A DNA stretch of 43,666 nucleotides from a virus (Duplodnaviria > Heunggongvirae > Uroviricota > Caudoviricetes). Both the position numbers and the translations under genes were made by a program. The DNA lies in IMG/VR virus record IMGVR_UViG_3300045988_028451, positions 1-43,666 of that record. One strand, 5' to 3'. Positions 3,391 through 39,093 of the stretch are shown piece by piece (the first letter of the stretch is position 1; each line of letters begins with the position of its first letter). Under the pieces are notes generated by a model. It did no database searches and was not told the DNA's origin. It saw nothing but the letters and a program-made list of their open reading frames with translations.

Positions 3391-3419
3391 AGGCCCCGTT
3401 TGGGGCCTTGTTTATTTAA
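3391..3419. terminator. bidirectional rho-independent terminator between convergent operons
   Basis: GGCCCC-GTTT-GGGGCC hairpin followed by TTGTTTATTT; T-rich on the opposite strand too. Confidence 0.7.
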
Positions 3420-8311: not shown

Positions 8312-8667
8312 AATTCAATCTCCGTGTACAGGTCGCTCAGGTCAACAAGCCGGTCTAGCCGTACCTGACGGGAGGCCATCTCGCAATGACTCACCATTCC
8401 GTCAAAGTAGACCCCGGCGTGCCACACGATTCTGCCGCCGCGACGCCTACCCATAAGAACCGCGCACAAGTTCTCAGGCTTATCAATTTTCGTAAGCCCC
8501 TTCGTGTTGCGATGCCCTTCGTCAAACGCGTCGTTAATTGCCGTTGGGCTTGTAGCGTCGAACGCCGGTGTGGCTAACCCGGCATCCGCACGGACAATAC
8601 GCACGTGATGCCAGCAATTGCGTTTGCGAAAGTCGTAAGGAATTCCCGTGTAGTCGTTAATGTTCAT
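8302..8667 (-). CDS. tail assembly protein, NlpC/P60-like (lambda gpK-like)
   Basis: Cys-His-His arrangement (NCWHHV ... HAGVY) and position between minor tail and J-like genes. Confidence 0.45.
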   Translation of the reverse strand: MNINDYTGIPYDFRKRNCWHHVRIVRADAGLATPAFDATSPTAINDAFDEGHRNTKGLTKIDKPENLCAVLMGRRRGGRIVWHAGVYFDGMVSHCEMASRQVRLDRLVDLSDLYTEIEFWR

Positions 8668-24834: not shown

Positions 24835-24854
24835 AAAGCCCCTTTCGGGGCTAT
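24835..24854 (-). terminator. hairpin between portal and MuF-like genes (possible partial terminator or RNA stability element)
   Basis: AGCCCC-TTTC-GGGGCT hairpin, T-rich downstream on minus strand. Confidence 0.35.
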
Positions 24855-26356: not shown

Positions 26357-27607
26357 TTAAAGTGCGAAAGTCACCGGGATGTTGATTACTGGCTTAACCA
26401 CCGGCATCTCATAAACTACAGGATAGCCGAGAGCATCCGCCATATGGTCAATGACGCCGTCTTTAGCAGGCTCTCCGTTATCATCATATGCCTGCTGCTC
26501 CAGTGTCTTCGCTATCTCAGGGCATAAGTGGTCGTTAACCCACAGCTTACCTTTTTCCAGCGCGGTATTCACGGCTAAAACACGGTCTTTAACCGGTGGG
26601 TTGGCGGATTTAGCGCGAACATCAAAACCGGCCTGCTGTAGTAAGGCGATATCGGAGATTGACGCCGAGTTGGTTTTGCGGTTCTTGCCGCTGGCGTCCG
26701 GGTAAACGACGATGCGGTGGCCTTGCGACTTCCACTTCTCGGTAATCACACGCACGGTATCTGGCGTATCGAACAGGCCCTTCAGTTCTGCTACCGCGTG
26801 CCAGCCGTCTTTACGTTGCACATACACGGCGCTGGCGTTCTTCGTAACGTTGAAGTCCTGCCCGATGTACAGCGTGTCGCCCGGTTGGATTGTCTCTTTG
26901 CTGCGATGCTTACGTCGGTCGTAGGCGTAGTAGACGCTGCCGGATGTCAGGTTAACGAACTCCCCATTCAGGTACGCGTTAATCAGTTGCGCTGGGTAAG
27001 TCTCGGTCAGCGAGCTAATGTAGTCAGGCGGCAGGAATCGCGCGTTCTCGTGGGTGGAAGCCTGCACCATTGAGTAACTCGGTGTCGGGTTCTCTTTGAA
27101 CTTGGCGTAGACGAACTTGAACCCTTCCGGCGTCGTGGTGACGGAGATGTGGTTGGTTACACCAGGGATAACCAGACGCATACGGGCGACGATTTTGTTC
27201 CATGCCAGTTCAGCTTTTTCTCGGCTCAGTACGTCCAGTTCATCCACGACCGCCGCGGCTATTTTGAAACCGACGATAGAGCCTGGGTTATCCATCGAAC
27301 GGCAGATTACTGTACCGATTACTGTCTTACCTCTCGCAACGACGACCTCTTTGTCTCCGGATTTAACCAGCACATCAAGGCCGAGCAGGTTAGCCGCTTC
27401 CTCGAATGTCGGGTAGAAGATGTCACGGATGGCGGGATAGGTAGGGCCGAAGTAGCCCAGGCGTGTACCAGGGTGCTTGAGCATAAACGTAAGCAGGTCA
27501 AGGCAGCCGACAAACGTCTTGCCACTACCGAAGCCGCCTACGTAGGCCTTGTATTTGTTGTCACAATTCAGGAACAGTGCCTGCGGCGCGGATAGCTGAA
27601 TACTCAT
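26357..27607 (-). CDS. terminase large subunit
   Basis: Walker A GGFGSGKT near N-terminus, Walker B-like AAAVVDELD, C-terminal nuclease-like acidic motifs; stop/start overlap with upstream small subunit gene. Confidence 0.85.
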   Translation of the reverse strand: MSIQLSAPQALFLNCDNKYKAYVGGFGSGKTFVGCLDLLTFMLKHPGTRLGYFGPTYPAIRDIFYPTFEEAANLLGLDVLVKSGDKEVVVARGKTVIGTVICRSMDNPGSIVGFKIAAAVVDELDVLSREKAELAWNKIVARMRLVIPGVTNHISVTTTPEGFKFVYAKFKENPTPSYSMVQASTHENARFLPPDYISSLTETYPAQLINAYLNGEFVNLTSGSVYYAYDRRKHRSKETIQPGDTLYIGQDFNVTKNASAVYVQRKDGWHAVAELKGLFDTPDTVRVITEKWKSQGHRIVVYPDASGKNRKTNSASISDIALLQQAGFDVRAKSANPPVKDRVLAVNTALEKGKLWVNDHLCPEIAKTLEQQAYDDNGEPAKDGVIDHMADALGYPVVYEMPVVKPVINIPVTFAL

Positions 27608-28149
27608 TCCTCTACCTCACCCATGTTCGTTGTTACAATTTTACCTACAGGCTCCGCAACACTGAAAATAATCTCAGTCGGTGCCGTTTCTTCGGCGGAT
27701 TCAACTGGTTTCTCTTTGCCAAGGCCAAGTTTCGCAGCGGCAAACGTAGCAGAGATACCTGCAGCCCCTGTCTCAGTGAAGTATGCCTCTTCCAATGCCT
27801 GTGCTGTCTCATAGGCTTCGGCAAATGCGGGAATCTCACGCAGCCACAGCTTAATAATCGGGATAGTGACGCCGATGTGTAGGGCGAAGCGGGCCAGTGA
27901 CGGTGGCTTATCCTGAATCAGCGGGCGTTCGTCACCCTTAGACGTGGGCGCAAGTTCCCATGACGTGCGGTCGAAGAACTCGATTAACGCGTCGCAATAG
28001 TCCGGGTCCCACAACGCGGCGGAATTACGGGACGATTGATAAAGGCTCTGTTTACCGCGCGGTCGTTTACGGCGACGGTTTGCGCTAACAGCTTCTTCAT
28101 GTGCAGCTTGCACCACCTCTGGCGATGGCTGCTTGAGTTTCAGCTTCAT
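27604..28149 (-). CDS. terminase small subunit (putative)
   Basis: Immediately upstream of and overlapping the large subunit gene; HTH-like segment; ATG at 28149 with AAGGGG RBS (ORF track lists upstream ATG at 28188). Confidence 0.5.
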   Translation of the reverse strand: MKLKLKQPSPEVVQAAHEEAVSANRRRKRPRGKQSLYQSSRNSAALWDPDYCDALIEFFDRTSWELAPTSKGDERPLIQDKPPSLARFALHIGVTIPIIKLWLREIPAFAEAYETAQALEEAYFTETGAAGISATFAAAKLGLGKEKPVESAEETAPTEIIFSVAEPVGKIVTTNMGEVEE

Positions 28150-28166
28150 AGAATCCCCTTGCGTAT

Positions 28167-28208
28167 GCGTCTGACCATCAGAGCGCATCAGACGCGCCCT
28201 ACGCGTCT
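28167..28208. repeat. overlapping inverted repeats (GCGTCTGA / TCAGACGC and AGACGCG / CGCGTCT) at the 5-prime end of the terminase small subunit gene
   Basis: GCGTCTGA 28167-28174, TCAGACGC 28188-28195, AGACGCG 28190-28196, CGCGTCT 28202-28208; two mutually exclusive stems share the middle arm. Confidence 0.5.
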
Positions 28209-28248
28209 AAAGGGATTATATAAGGGATTGGGTGGGATGTACAGAAAA

Positions 28249-28264
28249 GCCCTCCGTAGAGGGC
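28249..28264 (-). terminator. putative rho-independent terminator upstream of terminase genes
   Basis: GCCCTC-CGTA-GAGGGC hairpin followed on minus strand by TTTTCTGT. Confidence 0.45.
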
Positions 28265-28358
28265 TTGTATCAGTTATACAGGCCGTGTCGTGGTGCTCTT
28301 TTACCATCGCCGCCGTAATGGTTGTTAGCTACAGCGATAGCCCAGACGATAGGGATGA

Positions 28359-28625
28359 TTAGTAGCCGCATTCGTTCTCCTCTTTAGCAATACGTTGCTC
28401 GGTTTTAGTGATACCGCGGCGCGTGAATAATACCGGGCTTGTCTTAACGTGCGTCATTAGACGGTTGTTATAGATTACGTGGCGCTCACATTTCACGTCT
28501 TTGCTGTACTTAGCAATCGTCATTTCGTTGAGGCCAGTTTGTCGGCATGTCTCCGCCATCGTGCCGAATTCTTTAATCAGGTTAGGAATGCTGGTAATCA
28601 TCCTAAGAAATTCCTCGTTGACCAC
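28359..28625 (-). CDS. hypothetical protein
   Basis: ORF with GTG start (internal ATG at 28601 possible). Confidence 0.4.
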   Translation of the reverse strand: MVNEEFLRMITSIPNLIKEFGTMAETCRQTGLNEMTIAKYSKDVKCERHVIYNNRLMTHVKTSPVLFTRRGITKTEQRIAKEENECGY

Positions 28626-34117: not shown

Positions 34118-34261
34118 TCACCTCGGATTCGCAACAGACAACACACCAGCTTTCCACGCCCGCCACGCGAGACGCGTCTTAACGTTCAGGTACTCTTTCT
34201 TCGAACCCTTATTAACGGGCAGACCCTCGACGACGGCCCACCGTTCGAATGCTTCTCTCAT
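34118..34261 (-). CDS. hypothetical small protein (47 aa)
   Basis: ATG at 34261 preceded by GGAGG RBS; below ORF-track cutoff. Confidence 0.35.
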   Translation of the reverse strand: MREAFERWAVVEGLPVNKGSKKEYLNVKTRLAWRAWKAGVLSVANPR

Positions 34262-38820: not shown

Positions 38821-39093
38821 ATGATTTACCAACTCTACCGCGCCGTTGACAGGCGGGATAACACAGAGGCGTTGTGGCTGTTGCGTGCGCCGTCAGGTGC
38901 GCACCAGATGGAAGAGATGGCGTACTTAGGCAAAGTACCGCGGGCTAAAGATATAGGCCGTCATGTGTCGCAGATTAAGCGCACGACTTTTGCCAAGCCT
39001 GACTTTTATGTCTTCGAGTCGATGTATGGATGGGCCATGCATTGCCAGCACCAGACCAGACATTTAATTGACCAGTGGGAGAGCAGGGTATGA
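38821..39093 (+). CDS. hypothetical protein
   Basis: ORF. Confidence 0.45.
   Translation: MIYQLYRAVDRRDNTEALWLLRAPSGAHQMEEMAYLGKVPRAKDIGRHVSQIKRTTFAKPDFYVFESMYGWAMHCQHQTRHLIDQWESRV

Follow-up and report, generated by a model that had tools for sequence, protein, structure and literature searches.

The 43,666-nucleotide virus record IMGVR_UViG_3300045988_028451, analyzed over its whole length and called here the window, is a Kagunavirus genome (K1G-like, Guernseyvirinae) that carries a cluster of inverted repeats at positions 28167 to 28208, next to the gene for the small terminase subunit (terS). Comparison with related phages gives good support to the view that these repeats encode a conserved, structured RNA leader at the 5′ end of the late transcript (terS-terL-portal-head-tail). 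The 1.1 kb around the repeats is 90 to 99% identical to dozens of Escherichia phages. The local genes lie on the minus strand, as do all features described below unless stated otherwise, in the order NinH-like 88-aa gene (end at 28359), intergenic region, terS, TerL (26357 to 27607), and portal.

Layout of the terS upstream region

The terS coding sequence (27604 to 28149; 181 aa) matches PHROG 3064, “terminase” (E = 9e-73), and the TerL gene is directly downstream. Its true start is the ATG at 28149, preceded by the Shine-Dalgarno (SD) sequence AAGGGGA (28154 to 28160), and PHROG 3064 aligns from residue 1; a purine-rich SD occupies the same place in all lineages. The original prediction put the repeats at or just upstream of the terS start. 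They are upstream of the gene and do not extend into it.

The intergenic region contains the intrinsic terminator of the NinH-like gene (28240 to 28266), an RNA stem AAGCCCUC/GAGGGCUU with a UACG loop followed by the tail UUUUCUGU (-11.7 kcal/mol). On the plus strand, its arms read AAGCCCTC (28247 to 28254) and GAGGGCTT (28259 to 28266). A terminator-like hairpin had been noticed near the cluster beforehand; it is real, a good minus-strand intrinsic terminator with its hairpin at 28247 to 28266, and its stem covaries among relatives (GCCCUC/GAGGGC versus GCCCGC/GCGGGC). The U-tract of this terminator overlaps the -35 element of the promoter that follows.

That promoter consists of the -35-like hexamer TGTACA (28238 to 28243), kept in Kagunavirus and Jerseyvirus, a 17-nt spacer, and the -10 hexamer TATAAT (28215 to 28220), after which comes an invariant C; it matches the sigma-70 consensus at 10 of 12 positions. 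Read 5′ to 3′ on the minus strand, the region runs from the terminator through TGTACA-17 nt-TATAAT (28243 to 28215) and CCCTTT to A28208, from which the leader reads AGACGCGUAGGGCGCGUCU-G-AUGCGCUCUGAUGGUCAGACGCAU-ACGC-AAGGGGA-UUCU-AUG. From promoter geometry, this A, 7 nt after the -10, is the predicted transcription start, and it is also the first paired base of the first of two hairpins.

The two-hairpin leader and its conservation

Hairpin 1 (HP1; 28190 to 28208) has the form AGACGCG(U)-AGG-(G)CGCGUCU, a 7-bp stem with a U·G closing pair around an AGG triloop (28198 to 28200). Hairpin 2 (HP2; 28165 to 28188) has a bipartite stem capped by a UGG triloop (28175 to 28177), in which the lower part, AUGCG/CGCAU (28184 to 28188 and 28165 to 28169), is separated from the upper part, UCUGA/UCAGA (28178 to 28182 and 28170 to 28174), by a bulged C at 28183. 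The two stand in tandem 15 to 22 nt upstream of the terS AUG, each with an NGG triloop. This arrangement is the minimum-free-energy structure of the window leader (z = -2.9), with pair probabilities of 0.74 to 0.99 over HP1 and HP2 (0.85 to 0.99 for HP1) in a transcript from 28208.

The original prediction described three arms forming two mutually exclusive stems. The arms exist: on the plus strand, GCGTCTGA (28167 to 28174) and TCAGACGC (28188 to 28195) are complementary over 8 bp at a distance of 13 nt, AGACGCG (28190 to 28196) and CGCGTCT (28202 to 28208) are complementary over 7 bp at a distance of 5 nt, and the middle arm is common to both pairs. The second stem, extended by the U·G pair around the AGG triloop, is HP1. 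What had been missed is the short-range pairing of TCTGA (28170 to 28174) with TCAGA (28178 to 28182), which together with CGCAT/ATGCG makes HP2; the conserved partner of the 28167 to 28174 arm is the 5′ arm of HP2, not 28188 to 28195. This three-arm locus is the only one in the window, and at least one such locus occurs in 36 of 100 dinucleotide-preserving shuffles of the window (mean, 0.46), so the bare sequence is not significant; only conservation and covariation in relatives make it so. The 7- and 8-mer words (GCGTCT, AGACGCG, and TCAGACGC) are not enriched in the window. An isolated, perfect 10-bp palindrome, AGACGCGTCT, built from the HP1-arm heptamer, lies at 34170 to 34179.

Folding of the minus-strand transcript gave the two tandem hairpins rather than competing alternatives. 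The long-range stem (28167 to 28195; GCGUCUGA at 28188 to 28195 with UCAGACGC at 28167 to 28174) has a probability of 0.004, a predicted occupancy of 0.4%, and when forced reaches -26.1 kcal/mol versus -29.7 kcal/mol for the two-hairpin fold, a cost of 3.6 kcal/mol. It is broken in every non-Kagunavirus sequence, at 1 to 4 of its 8 pairs (2 to 4 in most lineages), without compensating changes. In a 22-row alignment (A4, below), columns 20 and 40 of this stem form CG in 11 rows and do not pair in the other 11; between column 40 and column 30, its local HP2 partner, covariation is perfect (CG in 11 rows, AU in 10, GC in 1, and none unpaired). The 80% pairing that the long stem retains in this alignment arises only because half of the rows are Kagunavirus. 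Judged by these comparisons, the long-range stem arises by coincidence, in Kagunavirus only, from the 3′ arms of HP1 and HP2.

The leader is near-identical in 49 IMG/VR loci of Kagunavirus and Jerseyvirus. A blastn search with the 151-nt leader retrieved 458 phage records, including phiEap-2 and Cornellvirus, in which identity is ∼76 to 80% and limited to the segment from the -10 to the ATG, and in which TerS is 30 to 37% identical to that of the window. The same architecture, with quite different stem sequences, is found in the divergent IMG/VR contigs L113 and L115, in Edwardsiella phage eiAU (Eiauvirus), and in Dhillonvirus. Common to all are TATAAT(C), 12 to 15 nt to the first loop, an HP1 apex of the form Y-NGG-G, an HP2 apex of the form GA-NGG-UC, an SD, and the terS AUG, with a constant distance of 24 nt from loop to loop (25 nt in eiAU). 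The repeats are kept in relatives, then, in the form of a two-hairpin leader that reaches beyond Kagunavirus.

The triloops and their closing pairs are near-invariant and the position of the HP2 bulge is conserved, while the stems change freely. HP1 stems measure 5 to 9 bp across lineages, and the arm variants AGACGCG, AGGCGCG, AGAUGCG, GAGGUGCG, GGGGCGGGC, AGAUGG, and AGGUGG each pair with their own 3′ arm. The upper stem of HP2 occurs as UCUGA/UCAGA, UAUGA/UCAUA, ACCGA/UCGGU, GUGUGA/UCACAC, UGGA/UCCA, and GCCGA/UCGGC, and the lower stem as AUGCG/CGCAU, AUGCU/GGCAU, CCAG/CUGG, CAUG/CGUG, GCG/CGC, and UAUGU/GCAUA, all of which pair. In Jerseyvirus, the change from UCUGA/UCAGA to UAUGA/UCAUA is a compensatory C-G to A-U replacement that keeps HP2 and breaks the long stem. 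The suggestion that direct GCGTCT (or CATCAGA) repeats are protein boxes is not supported, since in the same genus repeat identity is lost and pairing is kept. In 15 of 15 lineage representatives, the two hairpins are the minimum-free-energy structure, and in every one of them the sense strand folds more stably than the antisense strand.

Covariation was scored on alignment A4, which is ungapped, anchored on the loops, and not fitted to any structure; the MAFFT alignments A1 to A3 were left out because they placed Dhillonvirus HP1 one base out of register. A covariance model (R1, A5) and loop-anchored pair counts were also used. On A4, the two-hairpin model has 93.2% of cells paired, 9 pairs with double-sided changes, and a covariation score of 0.29. 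None of 500 shuffles matched these values, slid controls were 16 to 60% paired, and RNAalifold independently recovered HP1 and the upper stem of HP2.

The pair counts also identify the strand and molecule under constraint. Over the first six pairs of HP1, counted outward from the loop in 24 distinct sequences, 114 cells are Watson-Crick, 29 are G·U, none is A·C, and 1 is other; further metagenomic variants again replace U·G with U-A or U-A with U·G. The presence of G·U without A·C points to constraint on the sense-strand RNA and not on duplex DNA or an antisense transcript. In the upper five pairs of HP2, 119 of 120 cells are Watson-Crick, with several pair types at positions 3 to 5. For the lower stem, percentages understate pairing because Cornellvirus and phiEap-2 are offset there by 2 nt and the covariance model left them out of register; folds of the individual lineages show that this stem forms.

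Distribution, predicted start site, and the late operon

Covariance model R1 recognizes a single copy in the window (73.8 bits; the next match has E = 0.5), and although trained without Dhillonvirus it still detects the Dhillonvirus leaders. Scanning viral contigs with a strict pattern (TATAATC...YAGGGS...GATGGTC) gave 57 matches, all of them in these phage groups or in the ∼40- to 47-kb size class, with no apparent chance match among them (only the new locus L143 was checked individually). Of 73 pattern matches in metagenomic contigs, 55 fit the model, and those examined have terS downstream. The same scan of bacterial and archaeal genomes found no prophage or host copies; 14 matches in unrelated genomes were set aside as chance, since the model recognized none of them. 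An HP1-like hairpin (GAUGGCG-CAGGG-CGUCAUC) in the 3′ end of the portal gene of Dhillonvirus welsh (L152; 37554 to 37587) scored 17 bits (E = 0.013) and was likewise dismissed as probably chance.

The Rfam 15 covariance models gave no match at E ≤ 10 over 27900 to 28500 on either strand, and in the literature searched for these genera we found no description of the element, of a mapped pac site, or of a transcription start. Sequence comparisons thus support well our conclusion that the element is a previously undescribed structured leader RNA of Kagunavirus, Jerseyvirus, Cornellvirus, phiEap-2-like phages, Dhillonvirus, and Eiauvirus.

Two coding explanations for the region were rejected. The first, an N-terminal extension of TerS from the ATG at 28188 (MRSDGQTHTQGDS), is an artifact, as its frame is not conserved. 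The frame is open in Kagunavirus, Jerseyvirus, phiEap-2, and Cornellvirus (39, 42, and 45 nt long), is closed by a stop codon in PhiSTP2 (L054) and in L115 (AUG UAG), has no AUG in L113 and eiAU, and has an out-of-frame AUG in Dhillonvirus; most Kagunavirus members have GUG. The second, a short upstream open reading frame that starts at an AUG in the HP2 loop and in Kagunavirus and Cornellvirus ends as AUGA over the terS start, also lacks conservation, with an early stop in Jerseyvirus and phiEap-2 and the AUG missing from L115.

Many GenBank and IMG records start terS at the upstream in-frame ATG, adding 13 codons, and linearize the genome there (L026, L036, L043, L046, and L047), while four Dhillonvirus records begin exactly at the T of the leader TATAAT (L119, L125, L127, and L128). 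Such starts seem to be set by convention and not by the mapping of ends, and they leave the leader divided between the two ends of the record. Recognizing the leader corrects a widespread annotation error, in which terS is at least 13 codons too long in many records and the genome is linearized inside the leader.

The promoter comparisons bear on where the leader begins. The terS promoter, whose hexamers stand within the 16 to 18 bp expected of a sigma-70 promoter, is conserved in relatives. The -10 is invariant across five genera, save for TACAAT in Jerseyvirus, and the -35 differs by lineage: TGTACA in Kagunavirus and Jerseyvirus, TTGCCT in Cornellvirus, and an extended -10, TGTTATAAT, in Dhillonvirus. 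Since the distance from the -10 to the first loop stays within the narrow range given above in all lineages, +1 should fall within ∼2 to 3 nt of the HP1 base. Variation in the region is greatest in the discriminator (the 6 to 8 nt that separate the -10 from HP1), as expected if transcription starts at the base of HP1. From these comparisons, we infer a start at ∼28208, the first base of HP1.

Some further observations concern the promoter. Its spacer in the window carries a 1-nt deletion in a C-run (28221 to 28237; AATCCCTTA versus AATCCCCTTA in most relatives), giving 17 versus 18 nt. A second promoter-like site, TGTACA-18-GATAAT (9/12), with the same unusual -35 as the terS promoter, lies at 8330 on the minus strand in the tail gene region. 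The -10/discriminator (28209 to 28221; AUAUAAUCCCUUU) and the SD/ATG region (28148 to 28160; AAGGGGAUUCUAU) form an outer inverted repeat (28148 to 28221) of 13 nt with 85% complementarity. The predicted duplex has -10 to -15 kcal/mol in many Kagunavirus, Jerseyvirus, phiEap-2, L115, and PSDA-2 sequences and -3 to -7 kcal/mol in Cornellvirus, Dhillonvirus, eiAU, L113, and several Kagunavirus discriminator variants. It might occlude the terS SD in transcripts that read through from upstream, though not in those from 28208; its status is uncertain because only about half of the lineages have a strong version and the rest a weak one.

Behind the leader lies a late operon of ∼25 kb, from 28149 to ∼3416 on the minus strand. 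Compact intrinsic terminators occur on the coding strand within it at 24837, 22567, 19302, and 14753, and a final one is at 3391. We found no other coding-strand promoter matching at least 10 of 12 positions between 3.4 and 28.1 kb, including after the operon terminators. The operon of Dhillonvirus welsh is laid out in the same way, and there the leader has the only strong plus-strand promoter. All five terminators in the window are GC-rich hairpins with U-tracts; the GGCCCC...GGGGCC stems of three are nearly alike, and three are bidirectional (plus-strand partners, 22589, 14774, and 3408).

A BLAST screen for proteins common to Kagunavirus, Dhillonvirus, and Eiauvirus found no regulator, only replication, lysis, and structural proteins and a 90-aa protein (PHROG 4965; 38821 to 39093 on the plus strand of the window). 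This protein is the only small uncharacterized one with BLAST homologues in all three groups, and its matches to the other two genera are weak (E of ∼1e-5 to 3e-6), the one in eiAU covering only 27 residues. On this distribution, it is a possible candidate for a leader partner.

Possible roles of the leader and comparison with known systems

We tentatively favor, at rather less than even confidence, a role in which the leader licenses the elongation complex in the manner of put or nut, with protection of the 5′ end included. The preference comes from the helix at the 5′ end, the invariant geometry of the loops, and the presence of terminators without another strong promoter. The terminator closes the upstream early or middle unit, a conserved sigma-70-type promoter comes directly after it, and the DNA from the predicted +1 specifies the two hairpins. 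In Escherichia coli, a 5′-terminal stem-loop protects mRNAs from 5′-end-dependent decay; HP1 would leave at most 2 unpaired nt and might similarly shield the late mRNA from RppH and RNase E. The invariant loops, held at a fixed geometry, may serve as a docking platform on which one partner contacts both hairpins. That the triloops, closing pairs, bulge position, and spacing are invariant, while the stems drift, TerS diverges to 30%, and most phage proteins diverge too, suggests a specific, slowly evolving partner, and since the BLAST screen found no shared phage regulator, a host machine is the likelier one. We speculate that the nascent leader binds host RNA polymerase during elongation, or binds an elongation factor attached to it, and that late transcription would then resist the four internal intrinsic terminators, as with HK022 put or lambda nut; 5′-end protection would be a built-in side effect.

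A bolder version of this proposal, which we consider unlikely, is that the hairpins make up a second class of antiterminator acting as nascent RNA, with a structure unrelated to that of put, and bind host RNA polymerase or a host elongation factor directly. If it is true, one constitutive promoter would drive a ∼25-kb late operon through at least four terminators without a phage antiterminator protein, in virulent siphoviruses of Enterobacterales (Guernseyvirinae, Dhillonvirus, and Eiauvirus).

Several points weigh against elongation control by the leader. We infer the transcription start, the transcription of the leader, and its effect on termination, and the partner is putative. Weaker promoter candidates (9/12 or extended -10-like) lie in the operon at ∼21181, 18863, 17137, 12912, and 8742. 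The element is ∼45 nt long with short, regular stems, has no sequence similarity to put and no Rfam match, and occurs once per genome, where put and nut occur twice. Siphoviruses commonly have internal terminators that do no more than adjust stoichiometry, so the layout does not call for antitermination. Finally, the position of HP1 exactly at +1 is better explained by 5′-end protection than by antitermination.

That last point is the core of the strongest rival, which we regard as doubtful but worth serious attention: the leader is purely a 5′-terminal stabilizer and insulator that hides the 5′ end from RppH and RNase E, keeps the terS ribosome-binding site free of structure, and has no partner. 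In every lineage, HP1 starts at most ∼2 to 3 nt from the predicted +1 despite stems of 5 to 9 bp, and HP2 ends 4 to 9 nt before the SD and never includes it; the stabilization of E. coli mRNAs by 5′-terminal stem-loops is established knowledge. A single hairpin would suffice for this purpose, however, and the near-invariant NGG triloops, closing pairs, 24-nt spacing, and HP2 bulge position would be left unexplained.

Alternatively, the leader could be a translational operator, on whose two loops a phage or host protein would repress or activate 30S binding and set a low TerS dose. The single copy per genome, always directly upstream of terS, the distance from HP2 to the AUG, at the edge of the 30S footprint, and the SD-like GG triplets in both loops are consistent with this idea, and the conserved loops suggest a partner. 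Yet the hairpins never overlap the SD or AUG, the distance from HP2 to the SD varies, TerS (∼30% identity) is too divergent to be the conserved partner, and the BLAST screen of shared proteins yielded no conserved RNA-binding phage protein, all of which make this role improbable.

Explanations at the level of DNA fare worse. The palindromes of HP1 (7-5-7) and upper HP2 (5-3-5) overlap the start site and could be the half-sites to which a dimeric repressor or activator binds between +1 and +45 of the late promoter, and a near-consensus promoter before late genes would seem to need a brake. In these phages, though, the half-sites vary and the spacers (the loops) are invariant, the reverse of DNA operators; all but one of the non-Watson-Crick cells in the first six HP1 pairs are sense-strand G·U; and the antisense strand is always the less stable. 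We consider such an operator very unlikely.

A pac or TerS-binding site at the 5′ edge of terS, as in SPP1 pacL, seems slightly less probable still. Packaging in these phages is of the headful type and uses a preferred pac site, none of which has been mapped (PMC10783031, PMC9409062, and PMC13348001); pac sites are often in or beside terS; and CATCAGA occurs twice, 10 bp apart. The covariation is nevertheless of the RNA type and strand specific (the G·U without A·C counted above), the leader is ∼79% identical where TerS is ∼30% identical and does not coevolve with it, the direct repeats are not conserved, and the GenBank records that start here begin at an annotated ATG or at TATAAT, apparently by convention.

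Least credible of all is the switch in which the stem of 28167 to 28174 with 28188 to 28195 competes with that of 28190 to 28196 with 28202 to 28208: both are perfect in the window and have one arm in common, but the alternative stem is unconserved, almost unoccupied, and costly, and HP1 is transcribed first. Neither stem includes the SD or precedes a U-tract, which leaves no linked expression platform. Conserved alternative helices, close energies, and control of a terminator or SD, which mark attenuator- or riboswitch-like RNAs, are all missing here. The original prediction of a late-gene regulatory switch holds insofar as a regulatory leader lies between the terminator and terS; there is no evidence for mutually exclusive stems.

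In Kagunavirus, Jerseyvirus, Cornellvirus, and Dhillonvirus, hundreds of sequenced phages carry the element at the head of their only late operon, and phage therapy or biocontrol is a prospective use for many of them. A 45-nt motif with covariation and invariant loops offers a directly testable handle on late expression. If host RNA polymerase or another host machine is bound, the element would supply synthetic biology with a useful new natural module, an RNA that allows antitermination or protects mRNA.

Known systems resemble the leader in part. Like SPP1 pacL, P22 pac, and P1 pac, it lies at the 5′ edge of terS in a headful phage; those are double-stranded DNA sites read by TerS, whereas the constraint here is on RNA pairing and the element outlives TerS divergence. 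The promoter-in-hairpin arrangement of T4 gene e (lysozyme), soc, and gene 49 finds a parallel in the outer repeat, which would hide the terS SD in read-through transcripts only; only about half of the lineages show strong complementarity, and it concerns the flanks and not the repeats first noticed. As in ompA-type stabilizing stem-loops, a hairpin would stand at or within ∼2 nt of the 5′ end of a long mRNA, if transcription starts as predicted. The ompA type needs no set loop sequence or second hairpin, whereas here loops, spacing, and bulge are conserved.

The nut sites of lambda and P22 are likewise promoter-proximal RNA hairpins with a fixed loop sequence, and nut acts on the nascent transcript. 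The window even has a boxA-like CGCUCU, but it lies within the HP2 stem and reads CGCUAU or CGUUAU in relatives, so boxA is not conserved. The boxB loop is a GNRA-like pentaloop, in contrast to the YAGGG (an AGG triloop closed by C-G or U·G) and UGG loops here. No N-like protein was identified, the only screen being the BLAST search for proteins common to the three phage groups, in which no regulator appeared.

At HK022 put (putL and putR), a factor-independent RNA antiterminator, read-through in cis depends on the zinc-binding domain of β′. The put RNA consists of two stem-loops, and putL begins at +3 of a sigma-70 transcript (PMC9378689). By the same description, put is ∼70 nt long with long bulged stems and a triple helix, in contrast to the ∼45 nt, short regular stems, and NGG triloops of the leader described here. 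It also occurs twice per genome, on the early operons of a temperate lambdoid phage, and the leader occurs once, on the late operon of virulent siphoviruses. The two have in common a pair of adjacent stem-loops just after a promoter for host RNA polymerase (with the start site here a prediction), at the head of a long operon with terminators downstream.

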